DNA from: a virus
Lineage: Duplodnaviria > Heunggongvirae > Uroviricota > Caudoviricetes
Direction: 5' to 3' (one strand)
Virus record (IMG/VR): IMGVR_UViG_3300009678_000054
Location: 35,854 to 99,853 of that record
Length of the DNA stretch: 64,000 nucleotides
Positions 2,218-63,861 of this stretch are shown here, piece after piece (positions within the stretch are counted from its first letter, which is position 1; every line of letters begins with the position of its first letter). The notes beneath the pieces were generated by a model. That model was given only the letters and a program-made list of their open reading frames with translations. It was not told the origin of the DNA and made no database searches. The position numbers and the translations under genes are program-made.

Positions 2218-2979
2218 TTAAATTATAACGTAGCCTTGAGCGTCAACTTTTCTGGCACGATATAATTCAAGCAAGTCTTTAGAAGTATATCCGAATGTTT
2301 TTTGGAAATGCGGAGCATCAACGAAACTTTCGTCTTTGTCTCCCTGAGCCTTTGTAATACCATCATTATCCCAATCTGCTCCCCACACCCATCCGTATTT
2401 TTTGAAAACACGAACAACTTCCATCCAATCACTAACCTTATCACCGTCATAATCACCAATAGTATCCCATTTGATCTCATCCCATGTACCATTGCCATCT
2501 TTGTCAACAAGTAATGCTATATCAATTGCCATGCCATAATTATGAAAAGACCTTCCGGCTGGCGAATTAGTAACCTTTTGACCAGGTTTAGTTCTCCCCT
2601 GTTCATATAAGGCTTGTTGTTCTGCGAAGGTACGAATTGTAAAAGTAAAACGAACAGTAGACCGACCAGATAATAATCTTACGATCTCCTGGTAAATAGA
2701 AAAACCTTCAGCCCTTAATTTAGGATGAAGTAATTGTATTCTTTTAAGGGTTGCATTATCCTGATAAACAGGTTTAATGTTAGTAGTAGGGAGCGGTTGT
2801 GCAGGGACGGTAAATAGCTTTTCAAGAGTTTTAGGACCAACTACACCATCTGCAGTTAATCCATTATCAGATTGAAACTTTTTGATAGCAGCAGTGGTTT
2901 TAGGACCACTTGCTCCATCAATATCTAAAGAATAACCTTTAGTTACAAGTTGTTGTTGGATTTGTTTTAACGTTGCCAT
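2218..2979 (-). CDS. endolysin: N-terminal peptidoglycan-binding domain plus peptidase M15 (L-Ala-D-Glu / D-Ala-D-Ala peptidase family)
   Basis: PG_binding_1-like repeats (GASGPKTTAAIKKFQSDNGLTADGVVGPKT). C-terminal H..D..H metal-binding signature of the M15/VanY family (SFHNYGMAIDIAL..GADWDNDG..DAPHFQ). Confidence 0.75.
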   Translation of the reverse strand: MATLKQIQQQLVTKGYSLDIDGASGPKTTAAIKKFQSDNGLTADGVVGPKTLEKLFTVPAQPLPTTNIKPVYQDNATLKRIQLLHPKLRAEGFSIYQEIVRLLSGRSTVRFTFTIRTFAEQQALYEQGRTKPGQKVTNSPAGRSFHNYGMAIDIALLVDKDGNGTWDEIKWDTIGDYDGDKVSDWMEVVRVFKKYGWVWGADWDNDGITKAQGDKDESFVDAPHFQKTFGYTSKDLLELYRARKVDAQGYVII

Positions 2980-4145: not shown

Positions 4146-4450
4146 TTCTTAATTCGAGTTGCTACATATTTATAAATTGTATCAATTATTACCATCCCAG
4201 TCATACCTACTACAAAGGATGTGAATCCAACGTAGTTCATGTTCATCTCGGTTCTTTCTACTATAACAGGAGTGAAGTATCCAGCCACCACACCACCTAT
4301 AACAATTTGTCGAACAGCTTCCCAAAATTTAGAACGTTTGTACAAAGAGAAAATAAAACCACCAACTAATCCATTTAATAAATACTTGAAGGCTATACCT
4401 AGATCATCAAAAAGACGCAATAAATCATGCTTCATTGTATAAGTTTTCAT
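4103..4450 (-). CDS. small membrane protein (115 aa), holin candidate
   Basis: 2-3 predicted TM helices (GGFIFSLY.., VIGGVVAGYFTPVIV, GFTSFVVGMTGMVII). Lies in the lysis cassette and overlaps the upstream ORF by 43 nt. Confidence 0.4.
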   Translation of the reverse strand: MKTYTMKHDLLRLFDDLGIAFKYLLNGLVGGFIFSLYKRSKFWEAVRQIVIGGVVAGYFTPVIVERTEMNMNYVGFTSFVVGMTGMVIIDTIYKYVATRIKKWREATLDYVKKLF

Positions 4451-4461
4451 CGTTTACACGT

Positions 4462-4827
4462 TTACTCACCCGTTGGTTGAACCGGAATATCAGGAAACTG
4501 ATTCGGTTGATTAACAACTGGTGTATTCGGATTATTCAATTGGATAGGTTGATATGTTTTTAATGCTAACATTGCTGCTATTAAGGCGGCTTCAATTCCA
4601 AGAATCATAGCAATCTGAGCCAGGTATCCTGATAACGATGCAATAACGGCAGCATCAACACTCCTATCATCCATTATCAGTTTTAATACTCTAACGACTA
4701 CATACGATGCGTTATGAACATTAATAACGAAATCAATCAATAACGCAATAGCTCCCAAAGAACGTAAAGATATTTTATTATCACGACCAAGCCATAGGTG
4801 TTCAATGTATTTAAAAAACTTCTTCAT
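4462..4827 (-). CDS. small membrane protein (121 aa), holin or antiholin candidate
   Basis: Hydrophobic helices LGAIALLIDFVINV and AQIAMILGIEAALIAAMLAL. Confidence 0.4.
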   Translation of the reverse strand: MKKFFKYIEHLWLGRDNKISLRSLGAIALLIDFVINVHNASYVVVRVLKLIMDDRSVDAAVIASLSGYLAQIAMILGIEAALIAAMLALKTYQPIQLNNPNTPVVNQPNQFPDIPVQPTGE

Positions 4828-21760: not shown

Positions 21761-24700
21761 TTAATCAGAGGTCGTAGTTTTGTGTACCGTTCCTGCTGCA
21801 TCTTTCCAGGTAGTTGTCTTGCGAGTTTTACCCTTCGAGGTCATCTTTATCGGTTGATTATCATTATAATTAACCATAGAAGGGTCAAGATAAGGAGCAT
21901 ACTGATAATCGTTATATTCCCCAAATTGATCGAAAGCCGGGCTAAGTTTCAGCATTAAATTACCACTAACGTTTTGGCGGCGTTTAAGCTGATCTACACG
22001 ACTAAGCTGACCCAGGGATGTAAGGAATTGCTGACGCTGAGCTTCACGACCAAGAAGAACATTTTTGTAAAACTCTCCACGAGACTGAGCATCTGCAACA
22101 CTTTGTTTATCACGAACTTGTGTATTATACGTGATCTCCTGATTCTTAATACCAGCATTTTGATTCTCATACTGACTTAAAATCTGGTTATTAGCACGAT
22201 ATTTCTGACCGAGCATGTTGGCAACATTCGATTGACCAGCACCAGTACCCATTTCATTACTACCTTGTACAGCAGCGTTGAAATCTGCCTGATTAGCCGT
22301 TAATGCGGCTGTAGGGTCAAGTAGCTTGTAACGAAGCTGGTGAAATTCTACCGGATTATAAAGCTCAGGAGAGCGTCTGAATGAATCCACAAGACCTGCC
22401 ATTGGAGCAGCAATGTCCGACCAATAAGTAGGCTCATGAAACCTGTTCTCAGGTTGACGAATAAAACGAGGATTTACATTAACACCTGGGTTAAAAGACG
22501 CACCCGGTGTAACGGGTGAAGCAGGAGCTTGCTCATCAGGTGTAGTAGACGTAGTAACATCCGGTACAACCAATCTATTCATCAAATAACTATCAGGATA
22601 AGCTGCACCCAACGCCTCACGATCAGCCTGGGTAAAAGTATAACCTGGTTTTACTGCAAAAGTCTTCGGGTCAAATGCACGTCCAACTGCTTCGTTGAAA
22701 GCCTTATTCTTACCACTCTTTAACAGGTTGATACCTTCACGATTCAAACCCTCACCCCAAATCGTTTGGTCAATAAGCTCAGGTTGATTCTTCAATAAAT
22801 AATCATACGTCATTTGTTGAAACTTCGCAGGGTCAGTTACATTCTCGATACCAGGAATTAAATCTTTCCATTTATCAACAAGAGCAGAAAGACCACCCGG
22901 ATAAGTAACCTGATTGATATTACCCTTTGGAGTCTTTAACTTTTTAGAAACATTCTGCTTACCTTTAAGACCACCTGTTTGATAAATATTCTTTTGCTTT
23001 TTAGACTTACCATATTTAGCCATAGAACCATCGTCGTTTATTCCGTTAGACGCTTTTACACCTTCTTGATGAAGAAACAATAATTCAAAGATGTCATCTT
23101 CAGTAGGAAGTTCACTTTGAAATTGCTCGTTTAAACGGAGTGTATTCATACCAGTTTTATCTAAGTTAGTGCGTAAGTTTGCATCTTTCTTAGCAGTACT
23201 GTATTGTTTGTTTGATTTATCAAGTTCTTTCTTAGCGGTTTCAAAAGCTCTTGCATGAGTTGTATCGCCTTTGATTTTGATACCAAACGCTTCTTCCATG
23301 ACCGCAGGTTTAACCTTTAATGCTTTTGAACCTTTATCCTTACGCTTATCAGAAGTATCTTCAAGTACACGTTTTACATTAGGAATCATTTCACCACCCT
23401 GCTCATGCGTATTAGCGTTATCAGCCACCTTTGCGTATCCACCATTTTGATTTTGTATAACCTCACCTGCTTCAGCTTCTACATCTGCATATTGCTCCAT
23501 ACCATCCGGTAATCCATATACATTCGGCATTTCATCATTAGACATAATAGTACCATCAGGCATACGATGATAACCATCATACATTTTATAAGAATGACGA
23601 CCACCTTTGTGATACTTCTTAATACCACCCGTTTGCTTGCGAACTAAATTCGGAAACTGAGTGTAAAGCTCATCCTTCATGTAAGCATTTGGATTAGAAC
23701 TACCACCTTCAAAAACAAATCCTTGTTTTTGCGCTTCAAGTCCAGTTTGAATTATTTGTCCTCTGGCATTCTGCAATATTTGAGCAGCTTTAGACAGTTC
23801 ATCCTGTGCAAGATTATTATCAATAGCATTCGTATACGCAGCATAAGCTTGATTGTGCTGATTACCCAACTGCATAAATTTATTTTTAAAAACTACAGCC
23901 GGGTCAATTTGCGGTATAACACCGCCTACTTGCTTTACTCTACCACCATATTTCTTAATTCCAGGAATATCGGTAATATAAGAAGGACGCATACTAAGAT
24001 CACCTTCTTCAGTGAACTCAACATTTCCTGTTTCAGGATTATACTTATAGCTACGATTATAGCGTTTAGTTCCTTCAGTATTTGAAGCAGCTACAGTAGG
24101 AGTTAATTGCAAACTAGCAAAACGTCTTCCATAATTCAATTTTGTAACATCGTTTTGACCTTCAACATCACCGTATAAAGGCTGCTTACCTTGAACAACA
24201 TTATACTGATTTACTTCTTGTAAACTTTGTAAATATTTTTGATAATCATCAGCCCCTAAAGTTGACTGCACTTCTTCTGGACTAAGATATTCTTCATAAG
24301 GTGTTTCCTGTACATATTTTAAAGCATCAGGTTGTTTACCTGCTCTCCTAAGATCAACAAGACCTTTAAAATAATCCTGAAAAGCCTTTGGATTCTTTTC
24401 CTTTAATTTATCATTCAATAAATCTTTATAATGTGACAATGTAGCACTTGAACGATAATAACTTTCTTGAGGCGTATATCCAGAAGCAGTAGTAGTTGCA
24501 GGAGCAGACGGAAAAATAACACCACCTGTTTGCATTTGCTGACCACCTTGTTGTTCTGCCTGAATAGCTTCGGCCATTTGAGCAATAGCCTGTTGCTGTT
24601 CTTCCGGTTGCATTTGTTGTAATTGTGCCATTATATCACGAGGGTCTTCTCCCTGCAACTGAGCAAACAATTGTATAATCTGAGCGATCTGATCTTGACC

Positions 24701-25432
24701 ATTTCCACCACCTTGTTTTCTTCCACCAGCAATCCATCCAAAATAACGCTTTTGCGCATCGGTTAAAGGTTTACCATTGACAATACCTTCTTTCAACATT
24801 TTCTTAGCTTTCTCTGACGATAAACCACCAGCCTGATATTTACGCTTACATCCGCCATATTTATAACTATTCGCACCAGAAGGTATAGACATATCACCAT
24901 AGAATGCTTCATGCGCAATACCAGGATGTTCAAGATTAGGACCAAACCCTGCAGGACCACCACCATACTGCGTATACATAGGTAAATTATTTAAACCTTC
25001 ACCTTCCATATTCTCGAAGTAAGCAGGTTCTAATGAATGAACAAGTGTTTTGTATTCCTTATCCTTTAACTTATTATTTTGAATCATGTTTGCAATACCT
25101 GTAATAGTACTGGCCGCATAATTAAATCCTTTAACATATGGATTTTCTGTAAATCTTCCAGTACCAACTTTTACACGTTCCTCATTAACGTTGTACAAAT
25201 TACCAGCAGCATCTCTTTCCAAAGGAACAACTTTGCCAGTATCCTTAACAGGTGTACCTTCAGAAGTAACTCTAGGACCTGGTGTAACACCAGACGGATT
25301 AACAGGAGAAGGTTGGGCAAGATTCATCCAGTTAAAATTCTGCTGATCGTTAGTAGGCATAAAAAATTGCGGGTCTTCGTTAAGAATACCGCCTTGTGCC
25401 TTTAATCTCTTAAATTTACTCTTGTACTTCAT
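21761..25432 (-). CDS. large virion/internal protein (1223 aa) with Q-rich low-complexity segment
   Basis: 3.7 kb ORF. The Q-rich stretch is QLFAQLQGEDP..QLQQMQPEEQQQAIAQMAEAIQAEQQGGQQMQ. Confidence 0.55.
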   Translation of the reverse strand: MKYKSKFKRLKAQGGILNEDPQFFMPTNDQQNFNWMNLAQPSPVNPSGVTPGPRVTSEGTPVKDTGKVVPLERDAAGNLYNVNEERVKVGTGRFTENPYVKGFNYAASTITGIANMIQNNKLKDKEYKTLVHSLEPAYFENMEGEGLNNLPMYTQYGGGPAGFGPNLEHPGIAHEAFYGDMSIPSGANSYKYGGCKRKYQAGGLSSEKAKKMLKEGIVNGKPLTDAQKRYFGWIAGGRKQGGGNGQDQIAQIIQLFAQLQGEDPRDIMAQLQQMQPEEQQQAIAQMAEAIQAEQQGGQQMQTGGVIFPSAPATTTASGYTPQESYYRSSATLSHYKDLLNDKLKEKNPKAFQDYFKGLVDLRRAGKQPDALKYVQETPYEEYLSPEEVQSTLGADDYQKYLQSLQEVNQYNVVQGKQPLYGDVEGQNDVTKLNYGRRFASLQLTPTVAASNTEGTKRYNRSYKYNPETGNVEFTEEGDLSMRPSYITDIPGIKKYGGRVKQVGGVIPQIDPAVVFKNKFMQLGNQHNQAYAAYTNAIDNNLAQDELSKAAQILQNARGQIIQTGLEAQKQGFVFEGGSSNPNAYMKDELYTQFPNLVRKQTGGIKKYHKGGRHSYKMYDGYHRMPDGTIMSNDEMPNVYGLPDGMEQYADVEAEAGEVIQNQNGGYAKVADNANTHEQGGEMIPNVKRVLEDTSDKRKDKGSKALKVKPAVMEEAFGIKIKGDTTHARAFETAKKELDKSNKQYSTAKKDANLRTNLDKTGMNTLRLNEQFQSELPTEDDIFELLFLHQEGVKASNGINDDGSMAKYGKSKKQKNIYQTGGLKGKQNVSKKLKTPKGNINQVTYPGGLSALVDKWKDLIPGIENVTDPAKFQQMTYDYLLKNQPELIDQTIWGEGLNREGINLLKSGKNKAFNEAVGRAFDPKTFAVKPGYTFTQADREALGAAYPDSYLMNRLVVPDVTTSTTPDEQAPASPVTPGASFNPGVNVNPRFIRQPENRFHEPTYWSDIAAPMAGLVDSFRRSPELYNPVEFHQLRYKLLDPTAALTANQADFNAAVQGSNEMGTGAGQSNVANMLGQKYRANNQILSQYENQNAGIKNQEITYNTQVRDKQSVADAQSRGEFYKNVLLGREAQRQQFLTSLGQLSRVDQLKRRQNVSGNLMLKLSPAFDQFGEYNDYQYAPYLDPSMVNYNDNQPIKMTSKGKTRKTTTWKDAAGTVHKTTTSD

Positions 25433-25448: not shown

Positions 25449-27083
25449 TTATTTCGTAATACCAAGATTTTTCAGACTTTGACCTTTTTTTGAATCAATT
25501 ACCATCAAAGTATCACCTTTTGGAAATTGTTGATTAACGTACTGCATATCTTGTTTACGACAATTAATACAACCGAAACTTTGATTAGCGTTAGTTGTAT
25601 TATAATATTTACTACGAACTTTTGGGTCGTAAGTAGTGTGCATAGCTAAAGCAAAAGCTTCTGGACTAGAACCTTCATAATTCAAAGGACTCATATCAAA
25701 ACCAGGGATACCGTAAATATTATCAGCCGGGTTTAAATAATAAGCACCCATAGGAGTATTTCGAAAATCAGGATTTGCTTCAAGCTGCTGCATAGAATAC
25801 TTATTGTAATTACCTTCAGTATTCTTACCAGTAAGAACAGGGAATTGCTTTTGCACTTTGCCATTTCTTATGACATAACCTTGATTAGTTCTCTTATCAA
25901 CAACTACACCAGATTCCAATTTAGATTTATTTGCATCTTTTTTTACAACTTTAGCTGCGCCATATCCAGGAACTTGTAATTTTCCAGCATTTATTTCCCT
26001 AAAAAGCCTGGTATTCTGTTCAGCCGTTCCAGAATAATTGCCAGCAAAATAATCATTAAACAATCTCTTACGATTAGCATAAGAACCATCAATACCATGC
26101 GAATTTAATAAGTCAACTATGCTTCCACCAGCTTGTGTTTTATACTTTTTAGAAAGTCTTTTTTCATGCACACCGCCTGTCATATACGCAACATCATCTG
26201 CTCCATGTAAAACTGTCTCATTACCTGTTTCATCTCTAACGTATACGGGTTGACCATTGTCCAACCCACGTATAGGATTTGTCCCTTGTAATGGTATGAA
26301 AAGATTATCAATAGAACTGTCGTTCAGTCCTAGATATTGTTGTTCCGGCGTTACTGCAACGTTTCCACCAGATTGTTTTATATATTTAGAAATAGGAATA
26401 TTGTAGGATTCAGGTTTATCCTTCAATTCTCCTTTCAAATATTTTCTTGCTCCGCCCTCACCACGAAAATGCACTAACTTTGCAAGTTGCATATCTGTCA
26501 AAGCTGTCTTGATCTCTTTTCTTATCTTTTGAACTTCGGGAAGGAGATAAGTTTTTTCATAAAAAGAATAATATTTTTCCTGGGCTGTTGGACTATCTAA
26601 AAACTCTTTTTGAGATTTAACACCTGTAACCTTCATAATACTTTTACCCCAATCTCCCCATAGAAATTGATATTTTCCTGTAGCTGAACTATTCTTATTA
26701 GTAGCACTATACTTACCACCGCTTTCGATTGCTGCAATATTTTCACCTAAAGTGCTTTTAGTTTTTCCGCCACCCCCGCCACCACCGCCATGACCCGGCC
26801 CTGTAGTAGGACCTGTAAATATACCACCTTCTCCGTCAAACACAAAATTATAAGCATCATCTTCCATCATTTCATCAGAACTATATTCCTCGGTAGGTTG
26901 TTCATATTCTGTTTCATCAGGGATAACAACATTATTGTCAGTTTCATCTTCCATATCTACCTCATCGAAATATCCAGTATGTTCATCACGATTACCAAAA
27001 AGCTTACGATTAAAATCAGCAAGATTTTGATTGATAAACGCATCAATTATTGAATAATCCTGTATTACTTCAAATTCGTCCAT
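25449..27083 (-). CDS. virion-associated peptidoglycan-remodelling protein (544 aa): lytic transglycosylase/lysozyme-like domain plus C-terminal L,D-transpeptidase (YkuD)-like motif
   Basis: SLT-like segment GENIAAIESGGKYSATNKNSSATGKYQFLWGDWG (catalytic E-S followed by GxYQ). Gly-rich linker GPGHGGGGGGGGK. C-terminal H..SFGCINCRK resembles the YkuD active site H-x(n)-S-x-G-C-[IV]-R. Confidence 0.6.
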   Translation of the reverse strand: MDEFEVIQDYSIIDAFINQNLADFNRKLFGNRDEHTGYFDEVDMEDETDNNVVIPDETEYEQPTEEYSSDEMMEDDAYNFVFDGEGGIFTGPTTGPGHGGGGGGGGKTKSTLGENIAAIESGGKYSATNKNSSATGKYQFLWGDWGKSIMKVTGVKSQKEFLDSPTAQEKYYSFYEKTYLLPEVQKIRKEIKTALTDMQLAKLVHFRGEGGARKYLKGELKDKPESYNIPISKYIKQSGGNVAVTPEQQYLGLNDSSIDNLFIPLQGTNPIRGLDNGQPVYVRDETGNETVLHGADDVAYMTGGVHEKRLSKKYKTQAGGSIVDLLNSHGIDGSYANRKRLFNDYFAGNYSGTAEQNTRLFREINAGKLQVPGYGAAKVVKKDANKSKLESGVVVDKRTNQGYVIRNGKVQKQFPVLTGKNTEGNYNKYSMQQLEANPDFRNTPMGAYYLNPADNIYGIPGFDMSPLNYEGSSPEAFALAMHTTYDPKVRSKYYNTTNANQSFGCINCRKQDMQYVNQQFPKGDTLMVIDSKKGQSLKNLGITK

Positions 27084-30000
27084 TATTTTATAGAATAAGT
27101 TAGGTTATCAATTTTGAATTTACTAATAATCTTGTAAGCACTTGTTTTATCATTAATCAAACGTATTTTAAACCATTGACCTTTGATACGTGATAAATCA
27201 AAATCACCTTTCTTATAGTTGAATGCTAAACCATTCAAATTTTTATCAACATTATTCGCATCGAAAATCCATCTTGGAATTTCAGAACTTTCTTTCACCA
27301 AGTTATAAAACTGATTAAATCTCCATGCGTAATTAGCAATAGCTACTTCAATTTCCCAGTTAGTTATATTTCTTACAGGATACTTACCAACCTCGCTCAG
27401 ATTATTCTTGTCGCTCTTAACCAAATTTAATAAACCTGAATTATAAATATCATTGTAAATAATAGCTTTATTGAAACCAGGAAGCTTACTTCTTACAACA
27501 TAATCATATTCGTTCTGGTATCTACGAACTTCAGTATCGAATTCAACACTATTTAAAATTCTCAATTGTCCTTCAAACTTCGTTACATACTCAGCTATGA
27601 ACGGATATAGTGTACCATAGAACACTTGATAACTTGCATTTGTCAGGTTATGCAACCACAATCCATCCTTACCAGAACCAAAGAAATCAATCGCATCAAT
27701 GTAGTATTCTGGTTTATACGAGTGATAAGAAACCCATGACTTCGTAAAGAAGTTATAAGATATAGTCCATGACGCATCCTTCCAATAACGTTTGTCTCCA
27801 AGTCCAACAGTAACAGGTTGATTATCTACCGTTCTGAAGAATGTTTTTGTTTCAGGGTCATATTCAACACCTGTAGTACTATTTCTAAGCTTGTAATCAC
27901 GCTTAGTCAACAAGAAACGATTATAACGTTTATCAAACGCCATACAAATACCCAAACCGTTAAAGCTATTATCAATGTCAGTCTCAGGCATATTCTGGAA
28001 ATCTCTTAACACACGGAATGGAAGATTTTCTTTAAACCAGTTCTTCATTCCATTTTTAGAAATTTCATCCAAATTTGCAGCATTCGCAGCCAGGTTAAAT
28101 ACCTGTCCACGCTTCGCATCGGGCCAAATATGACCATACTCAGTATGTAAAATAGCTTTATGTTGACTACCTACATAACCTAATGTAGTCTCAGCAAACT
28201 CCTGTGGTGGATTCTTAAACACACCGCCTGTACCTACTTGAACCGTGTCACCGTCAATAGGAATAAGATTATATGCTTTGAATACTAACGTGCTGTTTAC
28301 AGTACGAACAAGCACTGTTCCATTTTCAATACCTTCGATAGATGTTATCTTACCTTTAGATAACGGGAAATCATAGTAATCATTTGCTTTATAAGTTAGC
28401 CAATTACTATCAGTAGCGTATATAATCCTGTTTGGATGTTCTATTCTGCAATCACGGCTTGGTTCGAAATTAGGACCGTCAATACTGAATGGAGTTTCCT
28501 TATTTTGCTTAGAATAATCTTTATTGTAAGCGTAGAAATTATCTTCGCTAATAGGAACGTTTTCTTCCTGCATCCAAAAATCCAAGTCATTTTGAGCCGG
28601 ATAAAAAGCTTTCTCTTTCAAGTTTTCTCCATGACGATAATCTACGTTAACATCTGATTCAACAAGGAAATAAGGAATACCGTAATGATACAAATAAATG
28701 AAACCATTTTGGTAGAAGAACTTATTGGTGCTACAATCACGAATGCTCTTAGGACGACCCATGAATGTTGCAGCACCAGTCGGTGTTACGATAGCCAGGA
28801 TGTCAAGTATATTATCAATCTCCGAACCTACACCAAGTGTATTATTGTAATAATGTCTTGGAACAGCCAGGTTAGGAAAATTCTCATAATTGAAATCAGT
28901 ACCATCAGGTAATCTAAACGTGTTCGCAAGGAAGTACGGAACTTTTGTCTTAAATGCAAAACGATTGATAAACGTATCGCCACCATAAACACCACGACAA
29001 TCATCGTTATCCGCATCCATTTCAAATATACAAGAGTCAGTTGGTAAATATTCAATATTAAATATATTACCATATTGATCTGGCACAAAATTCTTTATAG
29101 CAGCATAATACGATGAAATAGGTTTATTAACACGTTTGTCAAAATCACAAGACACTGCTGCATCTTCAAGCGTGAATCGACTTGTATCAGTTATTCCAGA
29201 AGATACACCTGCATCAGGGAAATCCACACCTGCATAACGCAGGTATAGAGAAGATTCACGATGCCAGTTATTTATCTTTGTACCAACGAATTGACCAGGT
29301 ATTGTATCAGATGGTTCAGATACAATTGAATTCTCACCTTTCAAATAACTCGATGCGCTGATTCTTCTTATCTTATTTCCACTGTTAGGAACATCATCGA
29401 AAGAATTATACTTACCGACAGAATGATATTGTGCTGACCAATCACGGTAAGGCGTAAGCGATTCAATTAAATCTAAAATAATTTTCGCTTCAGCAAGAAC
29501 ACGGCTCATAAAGTTAGCTACACGGCTAAGGAATATAAGTGGGAACAATGGTAACAATGCAGGTTGTCTTGTCGCAAGGAATATAGGATTATACCAATCC
29601 TTATATCTTCCCTGAATTGTTTTTAATGTCACCTCGTGAGCAGAATTGATATTAGCTGCTCTATTTGGATGCAAAATACTATCAATAGACGTATCCGGTA
29701 TCCACGCTGCACCAGGTCCAGTTACAAATGGTAAAAATGGACCAAGTACACCCGATGCCACACCTAAACCAGAAGTAATAAGACCTCTTTGACTATAAGT
29801 ATGTTCTTCTACTTCTTCTGTCTGCAATAATGCGGCTACTATACCTGCAGTCAACGCAATAACATAAGATGTATCTGACAAGAAACGTTGCTGAGCTTGC
29901 TGCGTAGATTTTGTAAAATAACCTTCTGACAAACCATATTCAACTGTCTCAAGTTTCAGCTTAGTACCTACTGTAGGTTCGCTGAAATGTGTATCAGGTG

Positions 30001-33000
30001 AATGGAAAGTGTAACGCTTAGATTTTATAAATGGAAGATCAGCACCTTCAGGGTCATTATGATTATCGTAATTTGCAAAATTATCAGTTACAAAAGGATT
30101 ACTTCTTAAATCATTATAAGGATAATTTGCAAAATAAATAATTTGAGAATCAAAAAATTCACCATCCTTCACACGTCTATATTGATTCATATCATACAAC
30201 AAACCTTTTGCTACAATAGACTTGTTTCTGAAACGATTACCTCGAACAATTCTGTAACCAACAATACGAGCAGCTTCCTCTGCGCTTACAATACCACCAG
30301 TTATGGCTGCAGTCAGGGCCGCACGCACACTATCATGGTCAACCTTTACACCTATTGGATATACAATATTATTACGAGTGAAATCCTGAGTCGCATTCTC
30401 TCCATCATGAATGTGAGTTATGAACGAATCCGGGAACTTGTGGTGACGAATAGGTAAACCGCACAAATCGCCCCAAATATCAGGGTTATTAGGGTAACGT
30501 TCTGTTGATTCCCAATAAGAAAAATTACCAAACTGATAACAAGTTTCTTCGCATTCTTCGTATTGCTGAAGATCACCGCCTTCAATAGTACCAGTATTAT
30601 AAACTTCCCATCTCTGTCTTTCACAATTCTCTACAGAAAATTCTGTAGGAGTTACAAAAGAACGAAAACAATCATCGCAATCTACCGCATCACCAATAGC
30701 GTTCTTAGGCACAATATACCAGTGATATATTGTATTAGGGTCAAGGTTATTTACTATAAATGTAGAATCTACAGCATTACCTATTAATACAAGAGGGTCG
30801 CCATCGGCTGCTAAGTAAATATCATAGGATGTAGCACATACTACGTCCAGCCAATCTAAAACAACTGTTTCAAAAGAAGGTGTTATAGACCCGTTAATAG
30901 GATACATTAAAGTCGTACAACACGGCACAGAATCACAAGGGTCATCTACAACATAAATCAACACTGACGCTATAGATTCGCAACCTCTAATATCAGTAAC
31001 AGTAAGTTCAAATTCGTATGTACCTGCAGCAGTTAAACCTGTTACATTTGTATATGCTACATTAGGATTTGAAATTACAGGTGTAGCTGGACCTGAAACG
31101 AAATCCCAAAAATAAGAAGCTATACCATCTTCATCAGTTGACGCACTACCGTCTAAATATGAAATAGTAACGGGAAGCGTCACTATCTTATCAGGACCAG
31201 GGTCAGCGATAGGTGCAATATTCGCAGGAACAGTAACATCAAATTGTACTGTATCAACCACTATGTTACCTACTGTATCAATAGCACACAACTGGAATAC
31301 AAATGTACCAGTATCGTATTCATAGAAAAAAGTATTAGCAATACCAGCATTATCTATAATAACAGTTTTAGGACCAGATAACTGAGTCCATGTTATAGAG
31401 ACAATAGGATTTGTACCAGCTATTACTGTACCGTTTAAACCTACAGATGCCAGGTAATTTATAATTTGGTCAGCACCAGCATTCACGCTTGGCGGCGTAC
31501 CTGTGGTTAACGCTGGCGTACAACCAGTATCAGTATGCGGCGTTAATGGACAAGTTTCAGCTTGAACCGAATTGTCTAATGTTAATTCAGGACCAGAATC
31601 CTCACATGGACAATCCGTTTCATTTAAAGCTTCTACTGGAATAGTAATTTGTTCTTCAGGTTCTACTGGTTCAGCACAATCATCGCAATTATTTTCAACA
31701 ATAACATCATCACCTGTTACAATTTCTAAATCACTTTCAATTGCTGGACGACCAGGAATGTGATATACTGGTGATTCCTCACCGTTATTATATATAAACT
31801 GAATACCAAAAGCGTATACTTCATCACGCATATATCCACGGAACTTTGCAACATTGCGTGCATTACGATATACAGCTTCAGGTATAGCAATTGTCTGCCA
31901 CTGAAGTCCTATACCATTAGCTACACGCTGCAAATTAGGCTTGCTAAATTCTTTCAAACTTGCCCAAAACAATATATTATTTGAAGAAGTAACATTTCCT
32001 GCACTCTTGTAAAAAGGAAAACGTTGGAAAATGTCACCTTCAGTTAATCTAACTTCTGCTTCTTCATTGCCTGTGTAATAAATTTTACTTTGTGTTACCG
32101 GGAACGTACCTACTTCAAAGAAAGAAGTAAAATTGTTTATAGTTTTAGCAACAGCTAGTTTATAATACTGATACGGTCCAAACTCATCCAGATTACGAAT
32201 TTCAAGAGCAATTGCTCTATCAGTAGGATAGTCTGTAGCAAACGTAAAATCTTTTGTTCTTATCGGAATAATATTGGTAGAAGATACATAAGATGTACGT
32301 TTATTTCCAAAACGATCAGCAAAAGCAATAAAAAATTGATATACACCTGCTTTATTACTACCACCAGTTACCAGATCAATAAATTCAATACAAGGCGTTG
32401 TAACATTTGGCTGCAAATTCATCTTGTTACAATCAATGTTAATTCCATAAACAGGGTCTTCACAAGGTGGTGTATTAAAAGAAATAATAGTCTTAAATTC
32501 TTTTCTAATAACAAGAGGTTGCGTTACATCGTCATTAGTATATTCAAATTGAACCCAACGTCTCGAATTGAAATCATCACCAAAGAAAATATCAATACCG
32601 CAATCAGTAATACGGTATTCAACAGAATTTATAGGAAAACTCTTGCTGAAATTAAAACAATCCTGATTATCAATTAAATGATATGTACAACAAGGAGATT
32701 GCGTAATCGTCTCCAATGGAGTAGATTCAGCAAGCTTCACAGCAGCACAATCATCACATCCTTTTATAAGACCATCAGAAGCAAAATCACGACAATTCTG
32801 TAAACCAAGTGTTTCACCTATTTCATTTGCCCCGGTTGTTGGGTTTTTCAAAAACCATATAATACGGTTCTGCTCAACAATGTTTACAAAACCAATAACA
32901 TCAAATCCAGAAGGGAAATCTGTGCATAATAGGTTCGATGGTTCATTCTGAATCATAGGAAATCCATTACCATCGAAATCTTCCACGATGGCATTCAAAG

Positions 33001-33091
33001 CATGGCTAAATGACAATTCATCCAATTGCATCGGATGAAAATCAGTAAGCATACCTTTTATTGTGCGAGATACTTCTTTCTTAATCGGCAT
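27083..33091 (-). CDS. giant structural protein (2002 aa) with PKD and FN3 repeats (adhesin / tail or baseplate-associated candidate)
   Basis: PKD signature DGSASTDEDGIASYFWDFVSGP. Big-like segment VNAGADQIINYLASVGLNGTVIAGTNPIVSITWTQLSGP. FN3-like segment VVLDWLDVVCATSYDIYLA..YHWYIVPKN. Confidence 0.6.
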   Translation of the reverse strand: MPIKKEVSRTIKGMLTDFHPMQLDELSFSHALNAIVEDFDGNGFPMIQNEPSNLLCTDFPSGFDVIGFVNIVEQNRIIWFLKNPTTGANEIGETLGLQNCRDFASDGLIKGCDDCAAVKLAESTPLETITQSPCCTYHLIDNQDCFNFSKSFPINSVEYRITDCGIDIFFGDDFNSRRWVQFEYTNDDVTQPLVIRKEFKTIISFNTPPCEDPVYGINIDCNKMNLQPNVTTPCIEFIDLVTGGSNKAGVYQFFIAFADRFGNKRTSYVSSTNIIPIRTKDFTFATDYPTDRAIALEIRNLDEFGPYQYYKLAVAKTINNFTSFFEVGTFPVTQSKIYYTGNEEAEVRLTEGDIFQRFPFYKSAGNVTSSNNILFWASLKEFSKPNLQRVANGIGLQWQTIAIPEAVYRNARNVAKFRGYMRDEVYAFGIQFIYNNGEESPVYHIPGRPAIESDLEIVTGDDVIVENNCDDCAEPVEPEEQITIPVEALNETDCPCEDSGPELTLDNSVQAETCPLTPHTDTGCTPALTTGTPPSVNAGADQIINYLASVGLNGTVIAGTNPIVSITWTQLSGPKTVIIDNAGIANTFFYEYDTGTFVFQLCAIDTVGNIVVDTVQFDVTVPANIAPIADPGPDKIVTLPVTISYLDGSASTDEDGIASYFWDFVSGPATPVISNPNVAYTNVTGLTAAGTYEFELTVTDIRGCESIASVLIYVVDDPCDSVPCCTTLMYPINGSITPSFETVVLDWLDVVCATSYDIYLAADGDPLVLIGNAVDSTFIVNNLDPNTIYHWYIVPKNAIGDAVDCDDCFRSFVTPTEFSVENCERQRWEVYNTGTIEGGDLQQYEECEETCYQFGNFSYWESTERYPNNPDIWGDLCGLPIRHHKFPDSFITHIHDGENATQDFTRNNIVYPIGVKVDHDSVRAALTAAITGGIVSAEEAARIVGYRIVRGNRFRNKSIVAKGLLYDMNQYRRVKDGEFFDSQIIYFANYPYNDLRSNPFVTDNFANYDNHNDPEGADLPFIKSKRYTFHSPDTHFSEPTVGTKLKLETVEYGLSEGYFTKSTQQAQQRFLSDTSYVIALTAGIVAALLQTEEVEEHTYSQRGLITSGLGVASGVLGPFLPFVTGPGAAWIPDTSIDSILHPNRAANINSAHEVTLKTIQGRYKDWYNPIFLATRQPALLPLFPLIFLSRVANFMSRVLAEAKIILDLIESLTPYRDWSAQYHSVGKYNSFDDVPNSGNKIRRISASSYLKGENSIVSEPSDTIPGQFVGTKINNWHRESSLYLRYAGVDFPDAGVSSGITDTSRFTLEDAAVSCDFDKRVNKPISSYYAAIKNFVPDQYGNIFNIEYLPTDSCIFEMDADNDDCRGVYGGDTFINRFAFKTKVPYFLANTFRLPDGTDFNYENFPNLAVPRHYYNNTLGVGSEIDNILDILAIVTPTGAATFMGRPKSIRDCSTNKFFYQNGFIYLYHYGIPYFLVESDVNVDYRHGENLKEKAFYPAQNDLDFWMQEENVPISEDNFYAYNKDYSKQNKETPFSIDGPNFEPSRDCRIEHPNRIIYATDSNWLTYKANDYYDFPLSKGKITSIEGIENGTVLVRTVNSTLVFKAYNLIPIDGDTVQVGTGGVFKNPPQEFAETTLGYVGSQHKAILHTEYGHIWPDAKRGQVFNLAANAANLDEISKNGMKNWFKENLPFRVLRDFQNMPETDIDNSFNGLGICMAFDKRYNRFLLTKRDYKLRNSTTGVEYDPETKTFFRTVDNQPVTVGLGDKRYWKDASWTISYNFFTKSWVSYHSYKPEYYIDAIDFFGSGKDGLWLHNLTNASYQVFYGTLYPFIAEYVTKFEGQLRILNSVEFDTEVRRYQNEYDYVVRSKLPGFNKAIIYNDIYNSGLLNLVKSDKNNLSEVGKYPVRNITNWEIEVAIANYAWRFNQFYNLVKESSEIPRWIFDANNVDKNLNGLAFNYKKGDFDLSRIKGQWFKIRLINDKTSAYKIISKFKIDNLTYSIK

Positions 33092-33093: not shown

Positions 33094-34047
33094 TCAGCTA
33101 ATAGTTCTGTCGTAAAATGAATAATAAAATTTATTTCTGCTTCTCATCTTTCTTATTGAATTCACCATTTTTGCAAACGATGGAAGCTTCGCCCAATATC
33201 TTGCCTGACCTAAGTATTTATCATACTGAACTCTGGCATCTTGTAACATTTGCGCAATATTCTGTACAGCAGAATTCCAATATAATTCTTCAAAAAGCTG
33301 AGAATAGATGTAATATTCAACAGCTTTCTCTATATCTTCCTGAACCGGAATCATGGGTAGATCGTTATCATCCATCGGTAATCCGTAATACTGCATGAAT
33401 ATTGAATCATTATCAAACACGGTATGTATAGTACGATTATCGTCAATTGTTACCTCATCAGCTTCACCTCTAAATAAACTTGGACAATCGTTTGTACAAA
33501 AATCCTTATGACGAACATTAGGACTTAAACGAAGCAATATTGGATTTCTGAAAGACGTTACTACATCATCACCATTTACAAAAGTACGAATAACGACTTT
33601 AGTCTCGCCATCATGCTTATGTTCAAACTTACACTTATTCGGACACTCTTTAGTAATTTCAGTTTGATACATGTAAATCCAGGGCTTCTGTTCATTGATA
33701 CTTTGAGTCGATCTAAACGTAGGTGTACATTTATACATCGCATGAAGACGCTTCAAATTCTCTGGTAATTTACCCTTACGGTCCTTTATAGGAATAAGAG
33801 CTTCGCATTCCTGGAACACCGCTTCTCCAAGTTGTTCCATAACATAAGCCACATGTTTGTGAAAGTCACCAGTATCTATCAAGCTCAAAGCATCGTAACT
33901 TGCCAATCTTTTTGAGATACGGTCAAACATAGGTCCGGTGCTTTTAAACTGTAATAGATTTTCTGGATTAATTTTTCCCATTATACTAATTTTTAAATTC
34001 TTTGCGATACTTTTTATTATACAGATTTTCCAACCGACCTTTCTCAA
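33094..34047 (-). CDS. hypothetical protein (317 aa)
   Basis: ORF 3 nt downstream of the next gene. Overlaps the upstream 175-aa ORF by 62 nt, so the true start may be an internal Met. Confidence 0.45.
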   Translation of the reverse strand: MRKVGWKICIIKSIAKNLKISIMGKINPENLLQFKSTGPMFDRISKRLASYDALSLIDTGDFHKHVAYVMEQLGEAVFQECEALIPIKDRKGKLPENLKRLHAMYKCTPTFRSTQSINEQKPWIYMYQTEITKECPNKCKFEHKHDGETKVVIRTFVNGDDVVTSFRNPILLRLSPNVRHKDFCTNDCPSLFRGEADEVTIDDNRTIHTVFDNDSIFMQYYGLPMDDNDLPMIPVQEDIEKAVEYYIYSQLFEELYWNSAVQNIAQMLQDARVQYDKYLGQARYWAKLPSFAKMVNSIRKMRSRNKFYYSFYDRTIS

Positions 34048-34513
34048 TAAAATCAGTTACTTCCCAGGCTGTATAATTCTTTCCATCTCTGAATAAATCC
34101 GATGCTTCTTTTCCTAATTTCTTCATCGCTTTAAATTTGAATACCTCATGATAATGAGCATTGTCAGCCCGGCCAACACGATACCACATTACACGACAAG
34201 AATAACCATCAGTGTGCATATTTGCAAAATAAACATACTTTCCTAGTTTCTTTGTTTCCTTCCAGTTAATCATTGGTTTACTAGGAATGTATTTAGTCAC
34301 ACATAAATAACCCATTCCAAAAGGAATCTTAAAACCATCAATCTCGTTTTTTATAACTTCAGCTACGATTTTATTAGCATGATTAATTATATTCTTACAA
34401 TCGTTATAAGGTAAGGAAATGTTGTGTTTTTTGACAAGGTTTTTTTCGTAGAATTCCTTACCAAAAATGTAATCTCTTTTACCATGACGGCTTACACTAC
34501 CTTTTGCTGGCAT
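33986..34513 (-). CDS. hypothetical protein (175 aa)
   Basis: ORF. Start abuts the stop of the 234-aa gene. Confidence 0.45.
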   Translation of the reverse strand: MPAKGSVSRHGKRDYIFGKEFYEKNLVKKHNISLPYNDCKNIINHANKIVAEVIKNEIDGFKIPFGMGYLCVTKYIPSKPMINWKETKKLGKYVYFANMHTDGYSCRVMWYRVGRADNAHYHEVFKFKAMKKLGKEASDLFRDGKNYTAWEVTDFIEKGRLENLYNKKYRKEFKN

Positions 34514-35217
34514 TATATTTTTTGTGGGTTTGTTTTTTCGTTCTCGTTCATATTTGTCATCTCATCTGTCTGGACTGCTCTATACGATTTTAAAATTTCA
34601 TTAATCGTTCCTGACTTGATGTCCTGAAGCAAATGTTCCGGGGCAACAAATTCAGAATCCAATACGCCAATACAACCTTCATCGCAGTTATCGCAACACT
34701 TATCACAATCCAGGGCCAGAGCCTTACCTTTATCTGTGAACATACCACGCACACGAATACGCTCAACCATCGAATCCGGGATGATAATAAAACCATTCTC
34801 AATCCAAAAATAACGCTTGGATTTATCCTGGAATTCACGACTTCTAGTGTATTTGTATTGTTGGGGAGTGGTTTGCAGATAATCACGGTCGTAGTCTACA
34901 GATGATATATTGATAAGATAACCAAAGCGAGTGCTGTACACTTCAGGTAATTTCTCTTTGGATTTCATTACCTTTTTACAGGAAGGAATATTAACATCGC
35001 AGCAATCTATAAGCTCCCATTCTTCGAGTCTTAGACAAGGGATTGTTACCCATAACTCAGTGTATCTAAAAAGGCGTTTGTCATCAGCTTCACGTTTTAT
35101 AAATAATGCAGCTATACCCTTGAGTTTCATATGGATATATTTGGCCGGAATCCATAAGTCGGGAGCTACTGCTCTGACGCTATTTCGGACATCGCTTATG
35201 ATTTCTCTTACTATCAT
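34513..35217 (-). CDS. Cys-rich hypothetical protein (234 aa)
   Basis: Cys clusters CCDVNIPSC and CDKCCDNCDEGC suggest metal binding. First gene after terminator 35309-35336. Confidence 0.45.
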   Translation of the reverse strand: MIVREIISDVRNSVRAVAPDLWIPAKYIHMKLKGIAALFIKREADDKRLFRYTELWVTIPCLRLEEWELIDCCDVNIPSCKKVMKSKEKLPEVYSTRFGYLINISSVDYDRDYLQTTPQQYKYTRSREFQDKSKRYFWIENGFIIIPDSMVERIRVRGMFTDKGKALALDCDKCCDNCDEGCIGVLDSEFVAPEHLLQDIKSGTINEILKSYRAVQTDEMTNMNENEKTNPQKI

Positions 35218-35357: not shown

Positions 35358-36791
35358 TTATAAAACAGTCGTGGTAAACTCACCTATTAGGCCAGTTTGC
35401 GGATTAAAAAGCAGGGCCTTAGCTTGTTTCATACTAGCATAACCTTTAGATTTATGCCAAAAATCAGTACCGGAAAGTGATGGTAATACCTGAACCTGGA
35501 AACCCTGATGCTCATCAACCGATACATGCCACATCTTCTTATTCTTATGAAAGTGACCGAGTTGGGCAAAACGAAACTTCGTGTCGGCCCACAAGCGGGG
35601 TTGCTCAGTTGCAAAGATCAATCCCAGGGATTCATGCTTTTCTTCATTACCGTGCGTAAACTGGAAACCATTTTTACCAAACTGATAATACTTACGAAGC
35701 TTTGGGTCATTATCAATGTTCACCAATTCATTTTTATGATAGAAAGATTCAAGAATTTCCCCCATCATGAATGACGATGTAGTATCATGATTACCAGGCA
35801 CTACTACTACATCAACCGGAGCAATTCTGCTTAGTTCATCAATCATCTCGATCAAAATACGTTTAACAATTTTAATGATCTTCATATATCTACAATCACT
35901 ATCCTGTGGCGTACCATTGAAAGTAGTATTATGACGGTTGTCAATGTTAATCAAGTCATTACCAATTGGTAAAAGAATTCGATCAACAGTGTTTAAATTC
36001 ACACGACTAAGTAGGTCTTTAACCGCTTCCTTAACCCGCTTCTCAGCAATCTTCAGATCATAATCCTCGTCTGTTTCGGCTCTCCAAGCAAGTTTACCGA
36101 AGTGAGGGTCGAAGATACAGATTTCCAATAAGTTAATACTATTTACGTTAACCTGATCGGTGACCACCGGAGCTTTGACCACCGGAGAATACGATTTCAA
36201 TTCTTTTAGAATTGCTTCTTTCTGCTTACCCAAGTCTGTAGAAACTTTCCTACGAGCAAGTTTAGCCTTTACCTGGAAAAGTGGCTCTACAAAGATTTTT
36301 CCGCTATCTTTGACCGCACCAGAAGCGACACCTTTTTCAGTGGTCCAATCAATAAATTTATCCTTTCGACCAACTTCCCACTTGTTAACTTCATACGAAA
36401 TCACTTCCCACTCCTTCTCGTCCACTTCACATGCTTTCAGAAGGTGAGAGAGCGTCTTTATTCGCTTATTTGTAATAATGACTACATCAGCCTCACCATT
36501 GCGTACATTCTCTTTAAACTGCCTTTCTGTGGATTTGTGACCCTCTGAGGTTTCAACCGGGTCATTAGGGACGAGACCTGCTTCACGCAAGGTTCTGTAG
36601 ATTCTTCGAACTTGTTCTGAAGTTACACCGAATTGTTTAGCAACATCGGCGTAACACCCTGGATTACCTCTCTCAATTGGGTTTTCAATGAGATAATTTA
36701 CTATTTGCTGGCGCAAAATAGATTCAATTCTTGTTTTACTCATTCCGTTTATTTTGTTCTGCAAATATACAACAAGTTTTTGAATTATCAA
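35358..36791 (-). CDS. HTH DNA-binding domain fused to calcineurin-like metallophosphoesterase (477 aa); isolated single-gene unit
   Basis: N-terminal HTH GCYADVAKQFGVTSEQVRRIYRTLREAGLV. C-terminal metallophosphatase motifs LPIGNDLINIDNRHN and VVVPGNHDTTS (GNHD/E motif), also LGHFHKN. Bounded by terminators at 35309-35336 and 36806-36836. Confidence 0.65.
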   Translation of the reverse strand: MIIQKLVVYLQNKINGMSKTRIESILRQQIVNYLIENPIERGNPGCYADVAKQFGVTSEQVRRIYRTLREAGLVPNDPVETSEGHKSTERQFKENVRNGEADVVIITNKRIKTLSHLLKACEVDEKEWEVISYEVNKWEVGRKDKFIDWTTEKGVASGAVKDSGKIFVEPLFQVKAKLARRKVSTDLGKQKEAILKELKSYSPVVKAPVVTDQVNVNSINLLEICIFDPHFGKLAWRAETDEDYDLKIAEKRVKEAVKDLLSRVNLNTVDRILLPIGNDLINIDNRHNTTFNGTPQDSDCRYMKIIKIVKRILIEMIDELSRIAPVDVVVVPGNHDTTSSFMMGEILESFYHKNELVNIDNDPKLRKYYQFGKNGFQFTHGNEEKHESLGLIFATEQPRLWADTKFRFAQLGHFHKNKKMWHVSVDEHQGFQVQVLPSLSGTDFWHKSKGYASMKQAKALLFNPQTGLIGEFTTTVL

Positions 36792-55762: not shown

Positions 55763-55814
55763 TGCCGCATACTGGTTTTGCAGACCAGCGCATTACTATC
55801 TTTGCTATACGGCC

Positions 55815-63860: not shown

Positions 63861-63861
63861 G

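Follow-up and report, generated by a model that had tools for sequence, protein, structure and literature searches.

The stretch of DNA analysed here (hereafter, the window) comprises 64,000 nucleotides of the IMG/VR virus record IMGVR_UViG_3300009678_000054 (positions 35,854 to 99,853; Caudoviricetes), and the element under study is an open reading frame (ORF) of 544 amino acids (aa) located at 25449..27083 on the minus strand. The window is a fragment of a large phage genome with all genes on one strand; it carries 19 tRNAs, a terminase-like gene, a capsid gene and giant ORFs. The 544-aa ORF is the first gene past the gene for a crAss-type muzzle protein, a position referred to below as the cargo slot, and its ATG overlaps the stop codon of that upstream 2002-aa gene (TAATG). 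The coordinates and the two peptide strings given in an earlier, sequence-only reading of this locus were confirmed in the DNA. An identical protein (P0001) is found on public metagenome contigs, the largest of 119,689 bp, while a search for near-identical DNA using 20 kb against deposited phages gave no match.

The 544-aa protein is modular. Its N-terminal region (aa 1-95; 26799..27083, minus strand as for all features of the gene) is acidic, with 28 Asp/Glu versus 3 Lys/Arg, and is followed by a glycine run, PGHGGGGGGGG (aa 96-106; 26766..26798), a flexible linker with eight glycines that was the cause of spurious matches to scFv linkers in a PDB search. A lytic transglycosylase (LT) domain (aa 107-240; 26364..26765) ends in the motif K-Q-S-G-G. 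It is followed by a conserved “tail” (aa 241-312; 26148..26363), in which residues ~260-312 are modelled as a small six-stranded beta domain without a significant Foldseek match. After the junction KYKTQAGG (aa 313-320; 26124..26147) begins a unit that we call the cassette: a three-helix domain of the wall-binding type (aa 321-377; 25953..26123), a short basic linker and a YkuD-fold catalytic domain (aa 391-530; 25494..25913). No transmembrane or signal-like hydrophobic segment was detected in the protein (the maximum Kyte-Doolittle average over 19 residues is 0.45), and an HExxH motif is also absent.

The sequence-only reading had proposed that an E-S...GxYQ stretch resembles the catalytic region of SLT/lysozyme-like enzymes, and this proposal was borne out by the modelled fold, by alignment of the Glu-Ser pair with gp144 of phage phiKZ, and by conservation. 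The stretch lies in GENIAAIESGGKYSATNKNSSATGKYQFLWGDWG (aa 113-146), which contains the E-S...G-K-Y-Q region; the codons of Glu120 and Ser121 (26721..26726) specify the predicted catalytic glutamate and the next serine, aligned to the IES of gp144. A phmmer search of PDB with the LT domain retrieved phiKZ gp144 (3bkh; E = 3.9e-5) with the Glu-Ser pair aligned, and a profile built from the 70-sequence family retrieved 3bkh again (E = 5.8e-5). This protein is the sole solved relative of the LT domain that is detectable by sequence. An AlphaFold2 (AF2) model of aa 100-320 had a predicted local distance difference test (pLDDT) score of 88.9, and Foldseek placed 3bkh at the top of its matches (E = 1.6e-4, prob 1.00, 28% identity over 149 aligned columns), followed by Slt 5ohu (prob 0.99) and by Slt70, Cj0843 and MltF (prob 0.6-0.93). 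The domain thus shows in the model the lysozyme-like, goose-type helical fold of family-1 lytic transglycosylases. Among the 70 homologues, Glu120, Ser121 and G136-K-Y-Q are at least 90% conserved, and the glutamate is invariant in 53. The PHROG family phrog_4067, annotated as “transglycosylase”, also matches the domain (E = 3.6e-6).

Of the two Pfam profiles that had been suggested as a check, PF03734 matched the protein (E = 7.3e-13), while the SLT profile PF01464 did not match the LT domain, where only PF06737 appeared, below its cut-off (E = 0.066). Altogether, the models and alignments confirm that aa 107-240 make up a gp144/Slt-type lytic transglycosylase domain with an intact Glu-Ser pair and predicted activity. 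The resemblance to gp144 is confined to this domain: phiKZ gp144 has 260 aa and lacks a YkuD cassette, an acidic head and a “tail” domain. A likeness to ejected proteins of the T7 gp16 type had also been put forward. It holds as a functional analogy, as gp16 is an internal protein that is ejected and whose transglycosylase serves in crossing the wall. As homology it fails: hhalign comparison of the family profile with gp16 aa 1-200 gave a probability of 0.45% (E = 0.13). In addition, gp16 is a channel-forming protein of 1318 aa without a YkuD domain.

The second catalytic domain gave a clearer Pfam result. PF03734 scored 49.8 bits against a gathering cut-off of 23.4, and the match (aa 393-525) covers profile positions 4-143 of 146. 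In an AF2 model of aa 314-544, pLDDT was 91 for the whole and above 90 across the YkuD domain. When this model was compared with PDB using Foldseek, 49 of the 50 matches at E ≤ 1e-3 were YkuD-fold enzymes, the exception being 4xxt. Bacillus subtilis YkuD (1y7m; E = 9.5e-7) was the leading match, and LdtMt2, Ldtfm and Bd1075 were also retrieved. A profile-versus-PDB sequence search with the cassette yielded only weak or spurious matches (designed TIM barrels, ribosomal eS17).

The active-site segment (25563..25640) runs from His482 (25638-25640) to S502-F-G-C505-I-N507 (25563-25580; Cys505 codon, 25569-25571), and the C-terminal string reads H482...S502-F-G-C505-I-N-C-R-K510. It follows the motif HXX(14-17)[S/T]HGCh quoted for L,D-transpeptidases (Ldts) (10.1101/2020.02.18.954545): H482-T-T is followed by a 17-residue spacing, and the sole departure is the replacement of the second His by Phe503. 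The idea that the His-Cys spacing was unusually long was discarded, as 17 residues lie at the long end of the canonical 14-17.

The H-x(n)-S-x-G-C-[IV]-R signature that the sequence-only reading had recognized was upheld in part: His, Ser, Gly and Cys are present and conserved, while the string ends C-I-N, not C-[IV]-R. The residue at Cys+2 bears on one alternative, namely that the YkuD domain is a DpaA-like amidase that would detach outer-membrane proteins linked covalently to peptidoglycan, thereby freeing the outer membrane at the entry site instead of severing crosslinks of the wall itself. Compatible with such a role, the Arg found at Cys+2 in many transpeptidases is absent, and an invariant Asn takes its place here; however, Asn at this position does not discriminate, since the motif of a true transpeptidase, LdtMt2, likewise ends C-I-N. 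Further points on the side of the amidase are that an entry enzyme must pass the zone where the outer membrane is tethered to peptidoglycan, and that DpaA itself shows the YkuD fold specialised as a peptidoglycan-protein amidase (PMC12729407, PMC10653827). On balance, we regard the amidase as quite improbable.

Conservation of the cassette was examined by exhaustive HMMER search with aa 320-544 as query. At E ≤ 1e-3 the search retrieved 484 cluster representatives of the subfamily, of which 220 remained at E ≤ 1e-10; the majority are 400-2800 aa long. His482 is found in 132 of 133 aligned domains and Cys505 in 128 of the 129 that are ungapped at that position; the YkuD active site is therefore under strong purifying selection. 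Ser502, Gly504 and Asn507 are nearly invariant among the 133 domains. In the position of the second His of “SHGC”, the subfamily has Tyr (96), Phe (10), Gln or Trp, with Phe503 in the window protein. A second cysteine, Cys508, which forms a C-x-x-C with the catalytic Cys505 (25560-25571, minus strand), is found in 80 of 133 members, and through the pair C505-I-N-C508 the active site could be under redox control. In BFVD, very few viral proteins have the fold of the YkuD cassette. No cellular relatives of the cassette were detected in 185,579 species genomes, in a pattern-limited scan of restricted sensitivity.

The domain that precedes YkuD is DUF3597-like. It matches PF12200 below the cut-off (E = 7.8e-6) as well as phrog_5115 and phrog_2307, and is 37% identical to the portion that lies outside the catalytic domain in Listeria phage endolysins of the L-alanoyl-D-glutamate peptidase type. 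Helices are seen in the AF2 model, and a profile search gave a weak match to 2gqb. In other proteins the domain is found as 3-7 tandem repeats, and tandem copies are the typical appearance of cell-wall-binding repeats. In addition, DUF3597 has been tabulated among the cell-wall-binding domains of endolysins (PMC5017753). The models and the conservation data confirm aa 321-530 as a self-contained cassette with an intact YkuD-type His/Cys site, whose activity is predicted. Lack of the SLT or YkuD fold, or lack of conservation of the Cys/His pair, had been named as observations that would speak against a protein with these two domains. Both folds were recognized by Foldseek in the AF2 models and the pair is conserved, so that the domain interpretation stands. 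Neither of the two similarities can be put down to chance.

The position of the gene is informative about its product. The muzzle gene directly upstream (27083..33091, minus strand; one-base overlap) encodes 2002 aa with a match to PF25731 crAss_MUZ (E = 2.7e-34), PKD domains and a match to phrog_37948 (E = 4.7e-169). Further upstream, on the same strand, is a ring block (33094..35217) made of tail ring protein 1 (33094-34047; PF24228, E = 1.9e-17), a 175-aa ORF, and ring protein 2 (34513-35217; PF25702, E = 1.7e-20). Downstream of the 544-aa gene come, in order, genes for proteins of 1223 aa (21761..25432, minus strand; also in the cargo slot), 870, 1705 and 2508 aa. The order Ring2-Ring1-Muzzle-cargo gene is found in the window, in four genomes that carry an LT protein of the same scaffold, and in a sister phage described below. 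In crAss001, muzzle gp44 is likewise followed by cargo proteins gp45/gp46 and then by giant RNA-polymerase-associated proteins; the post-muzzle proteins were detected in virions by mass spectrometry, where capsid and tail contain them, and their ejection is proposed to precede that of the DNA (PMC10172136). The nearest cultured relative of the window phage is Leptolyngbya phage Lbo-JY46, with ~42% identity in the capsid and muzzle proteins, and more distant relatives are Cellulophaga phages phi4:1 and phi17:2 and gut phage csAssE-Sib. In phi4:1, the gene after the muzzle homologue (gp041) encodes a phage tail lysozyme domain, and its product is a virion protein by tandem mass spectrometry (MS/MS), as are its neighbours; no homology between the 544-aa protein and gp041 was found.

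These observations bear on an alternative in which the 544-aa protein would not be a virion component but a second endolysin, or a spanin-like late lysis factor acting from within. Endolysins do typically combine a lytic with a wall-binding domain, those of Listeria phages have a wall-binding domain similar to the one here, and the YkuD entries in PhaLP include endolysins. However, the gene is embedded in the structural/cargo block and translationally coupled to the muzzle gene, a position kept in every relative examined; the long acidic N-terminus and the conserved “tail” are not endolysin features; and the positional analogue of phi4:1 is found in virions. Furthermore, the window encodes a separate, canonical endolysin of 253 aa (2218..2979, minus strand) with PG_binding_1 (E = 2.3e-17) and Peptidase_M15_4 (E = 6.6e-13; VanY) domains, which argues that the 544-aa protein is an entry enzyme rather than a lysis enzyme; the lack of a signal or membrane segment points the same way. 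Usually, a phage has no soluble wall hydrolase outside its structural block other than the endolysin that ends the cycle. We consider a role in lysis very improbable. The earlier description of the product as a virion or ejected protein is thus supported by its slot after Ring2-Ring1-Muzzle, by the positional analogue in phi4:1 and by the separate endolysin.

Comparison with relatives indicates that the two catalytic domains are joined loosely. Most of the 70 whole-protein homologues are 300-340 aa long, and their match is restricted to aa 1-312, which comprise head, LT and “tail”. The N-terminus is kept in homologues, and the acidic head is found in P0002, P0004 and others; possibly, it is a packaging or virion-association segment. 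The “tail” is kept in 48 homologues and stays C-terminal even when other domains are inserted. In one homologue (P0062) an M15 peptidase domain takes the place of the LT. No YkuD domain was found in the cargo block of the four LT-scaffold genomes, in which the scaffold gene directly follows Ring1 and muzzle.

The sister phage (L019/L020), with ~76% identity in the muzzle, Ring1 and 870-aa proteins, is especially instructive. Its post-muzzle protein of 290 aa shares head (acidic region included) and “tail” with the window protein, and ends in ...EKRLSKKYKTK, where the window protein runs on as ...KKYKTQAGG|SIVDLL. Its central domain is M15/LAS-like rather than LT (SYHLTGNAVDF...HYHVE, with sub-threshold matches to M15_3, M15_2 and M15_4). 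The cassette is not missing in this phage: wall-binding domain and YkuD are inserted after RKQAGG in P0078, the orthologue of the 1223-aa neighbour, with 60% identity to the 1223-aa protein on both flanks of the insert. The two cassettes are 62-67% identical. As the linkage between LT and YkuD is not kept even in the sister phage, a mechanism that requires both on one chain is unlikely.

Elsewhere, LT and YkuD are found on one chain in reverse order in five large proteins (P0080, P0117, P0129, P0147 and P0151). Wherever the context is visible in IMG/VR or ENA (L005, L007, L008, L009, L011 and L016), the distance from the muzzle gene to the cassette downstream is 1-4 kb; in L007 its neighbour is an NlpC/P60 cargo protein, and the cargo block of several loci has no recognisable wall-active domain besides YkuD. 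The cassette is mobile, carried by different post-muzzle proteins depending on the phage and beside an LT, M15-like or NlpC/P60 domain. The pairing of LT and YkuD in the window protein is evolutionarily incidental, and what is conserved is the principle of placing wall-active modules in post-muzzle cargo proteins. A different kind of extension was observed in P0002, P0017 and P0029: C-terminal stretches of ~200 aa with an HExxH motif follow M-Q-[TA]-G-G, at the point where the window protein has its YkuD cassette, and no Pfam match to them was found.

The sequence at the junctions between modules was also examined. The motif [F/Y/M]-[Q/K]-x-G-G occurs 585 times, compared with 191 ± 14 in shuffled sequences (~3-fold enrichment). 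It ends at most 6 residues before 26 of 63 wall-binding-domain starts (~2.7 expected by chance) and begins at most 20 residues after 53 of 132 YkuD ends (~13 by chance). Within the window, observed versus expected counts are 12 versus 2.1 in the 1223-aa protein, 3 versus 1.2 in the 544-aa protein and 3 versus 1.1 in the 870-aa protein (19045-21657, minus strand); the motif is nearly absent from other window proteins, being confined to post-muzzle cargo. The insertion points of the cassette in the window phage and in the sister phage are both at Q-A-G-G. Enrichment was also seen in phi4:1 gp040 (L002), and values slightly above expectation in the cargo-slot proteins of Lbo-JY46; the motif was noted in loci L001 and L005-L016 as well, and is absent from crAss001 gp45/gp46.

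Three roles are conceivable for the GG motif: cleavage during maturation, flexibility as a hinge, or recombination between modules. The first option comes to mind because polyvalent virion proteins are often processed (PMC5512222). If so, the 544-aa protein might be a precursor with cleavage sites at its [Q/K]-x-G-G junctions, one after aa 240 and one after aa 320, LT, “tail” and cassette would act separately, and their fusion would be a convenience for packaging or expression. The enrichment of the motif, its location at module boundaries far above chance, its restriction to post-muzzle cargo and the Q-A-G-G insertions in both phages are in agreement with this view. On the other hand, no protease for the motif was identified in the window by Pfam or PHROGs; all that came up were a HEVIH sequence in the 2508-aa protein and an Rce1-like membrane protease. 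In addition, the same pattern is explained by Gly-Gly linkers that ease unfolding and refolding during extrusion through the tail, the cargo of crAss001 being thought to be partly unfolded (PMC10172136). The motif could equally be such a hinge, permitting that small domains unfold and refold singly. We regard processing as less likely than not.

Our interpretation is that the 544-aa gene probably encodes cargo of a crAss-like phage with a muzzle, that is packaged in the virion and leaves it before the DNA, and would act as a modular, periplasmic cell-wall-breaching enzyme. After adsorption, the protein would be extruded into the host periplasm, where the LT domain would cleave glycan strands. 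The cassette would bind the wall, and its Cys505/His482 dyad would attack hydrolytically an L,D bond of stem peptides, either mDAP3-D-Ala4 or mDAP-mDAP (mDAP, meso-diaminopimelic acid). Acting as an L,D-carboxypeptidase or endopeptidase in the manner of Csd6, Bd1075 or Tlde1, YkuD might thus loosen or edit the sacculus locally at the entry site. Lytic transglycosylases, those of phages lambda and P2 among them, are known to be inhibited by LD-crosslinks, which protect cells from such phages (PMC11390936). With an LT as its partner, YkuD might cut 3-3 links or remove the tetrapeptide donors for their formation and so relieve LT inhibition. Such a division of labor would need co-delivery of LT and YkuD, not covalent linkage, and the two might even come apart at the GG junctions.

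For four reasons, the YkuD domain most likely serves to edit or cleave peptidoglycan hydrolytically at its L,D bond while the phage enters. The cassette always travels with lytic modules, or replaces them, in the wall-breaching slot. Enzymes with the YkuD fold are known that work as L,D-carboxypeptidases, endopeptidases or amidases (PMC12729407, PMC10653827). Tlde1a, an injected toxin directed against the wall, has a related fold (PMC9638812). Lastly, YkuD is catalogued among the catalytic domains of phage lytic proteins (PMC8310338, PMC13284279). The latter fact qualifies the opinion, also part of the sequence-only reading, that a cell-wall cutter combined with such a domain would be unusual for a phage entry protein: YkuD in phage lytic proteins is rare, but not unprecedented.

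Several points weigh against this interpretation. The closest structural matches of the YkuD domain found by Foldseek are mostly bona fide transpeptidases, and its motif is canonical for transpeptidases except for the change of His to Phe/Tyr. An L,D-carboxypeptidase that only trims would leave the mesh closed, and 3-3 crosslinks may be scarce in hosts. The idea that YkuD helps the LT is weakened because the sister phage pairs its cassette with an M15-like peptidase, and because most phages with the LT scaffold are devoid of YkuD. The HExxH extensions of P0002, P0017 and P0029 were considered as occupants of a slot for a “second wall peptidase”, but this idea was rejected, as they may be zincin processing proteases (PMC5512222). 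Sequence homology to crAss001 gp45/gp46 is lacking (no BLASTP match at E ≤ 0.01), and that the 544-aa protein would be a virion-borne, ejected entry enzyme is something that we infer by synteny only.

The points concerning fold and motif lead to another possibility: the YkuD domain might be a genuine L,D-transpeptidase in the infected periplasm, resealing or stiffening the wall near the entry hole with 3-3 links, covalently anchoring ejected proteins of the trans-envelope channel to mDAP (as LdtA-C do with Lpp), or increasing LD-crosslinking so that the LTs of competing phages are blunted. The motif, HXX17-S-x-G-C-h-N, is canonical; the nearest solved folds are transpeptidases, and the layout of a wall-binding domain followed by YkuD is that of bacterial Ldts (1y7m, 4lpq, 5bmq); the reaction needs no external energy source; LD-crosslinks inhibit LTs, phage enzymes included, and Bdellovibrio uses Ldt enzymes on prey walls (PMC11390936). 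However, remodelling of a sacculus by so few cargo molecules is unlikely. The cassette accompanies lytic domains (LT, M15-like, NlpC/P60), and some cargo blocks, where one expects an activity that breaches the wall, have no other recognisable wall enzyme. Across the subfamily, “SHGC” has lost its conserved acceptor-side His, and the literature searched contained no precedent for a YkuD domain in crAss phages or for an L,D-transpeptidase associated with virions. For these reasons we consider a transpeptidase unlikely. A constructive version, in which the enzyme staples the ejected channel or cargo to mDAP or lays local 3-3 crosslinks, with C505-x-x-C508 perhaps serving as a redox switch that is off in the virion, is in our opinion rather improbable. 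If it were true, 3-3 crosslinks could limit the damage done by the phage's own cutter and make the cell refractory to the LTs of superinfecting phages.

Returning to the preferred interpretation, hydrolysis during entry, comparison with known systems shows partial likenesses. The crAss001 proteins gp45/gp46 occupy the same slot directly after the muzzle gene, yet have no sequence similarity to the 544-aa protein and no reported wall-degrading domain; indeed, no peptidoglycan-active protein is mentioned in the crAss001 paper (PMC10172136). Tlde1/Tlde1a, which are type VI secretion system (T6SS) effectors, are L,D-transpeptidase-fold Cys enzymes that are injected into the target periplasm, where they act as L,D-carboxypeptidases and exchange D-amino acids (PMC9638812; 10.1101/2020.02.18.954545). 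They differ in family (DUF2778/PF10908), in their shorter His-Cys spacing, in delivery by T6SS and in lacking a wall-binding domain. PF10908 did not match the 544-aa protein even at an E-value limit of 10, at which, of PF10908 and PF03734, only the latter was found.

Bacterial Ldts (B. subtilis YkuD 1y7m, 4lpq, 5bmq, LdtMt2) share with the cassette the order of wall-binding and catalytic domains, the fold and the His...S-x-G-C-h-N/R motif. However, identity is 13-21%, the His of “SHGC” is Tyr/Phe here, and the cassette is embedded in large cargo proteins and belongs to a subfamily found only in phage and metagenome proteins. The L,D-carboxypeptidases Csd6, Pgp2 and Bd1075 and the amidase DpaA show that enzymes of this fold may do nothing but hydrolyse (PMC10653827, PMC12729407). 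One of them, Bd1075, was retrieved by Foldseek. These enzymes are defined by a short L2 loop and a single-entrance pocket; in transpeptidases, the groove has two entrances and lies under an L2 lid.

Catalogued YkuD phage lysins also use YkuD as a catalytic domain, sometimes with a glycosidase (PhaLP, PMC8310338; a GH25...YkuD endolysin of a gut phage, PMC13284279). They are rare (10 PhaLP entries), are endolysins or generic lysins rather than crAss-type cargo, and differ in partner and wall-binding domains. Finally, polyvalent virion proteins are multidomain, adjoin virion genes, are delivered on infection, carry lysozyme or peptidase domains to breach the wall, often include a zincin MPTase, and are frequently processed (PMC5512222). 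The 544-aa protein lies among virion genes and has a binding domain beside its two wall-active ones, and its BFVD fold matches include “large polyvalent protein associated domain” proteins. It has neither HExxH nor an MPTase domain, HExxH extensions being carried by its relatives P0002, P0017 and P0029, and YkuD is absent from the domains mentioned in PMC5512222.

Precedents exist for wall hydrolases that are ejected or virion-associated and in many cases bifunctional, for LTs of the gp144 type, for YkuD as a domain seen rarely in phage lysins, for toxins with the L,D-transpeptidase fold and for polyvalent virion proteins. We found no description, in the literature searched, of a phage-specific YkuD subfamily with the motif S-[Y/F]-G-C-h-N and its own wall-binding domain, nor of the recurrence of this cassette as a mobile unit in crAss-like post-muzzle cargo, with modules delimited by GG. 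The structural atlas of crAss001 assigns no wall-degrading role to its ejected cargo. The view that emerges is that the first post-muzzle genes constitute a toolbox whose wall-active parts (LT, M15-like, NlpC/P60, tail lysozyme and phage-specific YkuD) can be exchanged in a large sister group that includes relatives of Cellulophaga Lightbulbvirus and Lbo-JY46. Such modules would be testable candidates for how abundant phages cross a Bacteroidota-type cell wall.

Phage ejection would be a third route for delivering L,D-transpeptidase-fold enzymes against the walls of other cells, beside Tlde1 of the T6SS and Bdellovibrio. A plausible idea is that an L,D-bond-specific enzyme riding with an LT is a counter-measure to the protection afforded by LD-crosslinks, a finding reported in 2024 (PMC11390936). 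The cassette, a small wall-binding domain plus a Cys enzyme, and the GG motif might also be of use in enzybiotic engineering.

Other features of the window and of related contigs deserve mention; all those of the window are on the minus strand. A DNA-repair-exonuclease-like gene (35358-36791; phrog_704, E = 5.7e-72) lies in the structural block just upstream of the ring-protein genes. The giant 2508-aa protein (6408-13934) matches DUF7178 (E = 1.8e-28), has a segment like the PHROG “tRNA methyltransferase” at aa 694-917, and carries its HEVIH at aa 1317; it may be polyvalent or RNA-polymerase-associated cargo with a zincin-like site. The 19 tRNAs form an array (55741-63933) on the strand of the genes, with a G+C content of 0.41-0.43 compared with ~0.37. 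In the middle of the array is the Rce1-like/CPBP intramembrane protease of 160 aa (61246-61728; PF02517, E = 9.3e-17), an unusual cargo for a phage, and an SPFH/Band_7 protein is encoded at 55815-56423 (PF01145, E = 4e-16).

In relative L005, a Band_7 gene (4272-4796) is located between the ring-protein and muzzle genes, and a GIY-YIG/NUMOD3 homing-endonuclease gene (9403-10008), absent at the near-identical locus L007, lies between the muzzle gene and the YkuD cargo gene. Lastly, the cargo block of a related phage (L023; SRR28211907_8262, a contig of 127.8 kb) contains at 13402-16413 an insert of four genes on the opposite strand, which include one for a protein of the bacterial gasdermin family (PF26164) and one for an 8xMP protein (PF24838).

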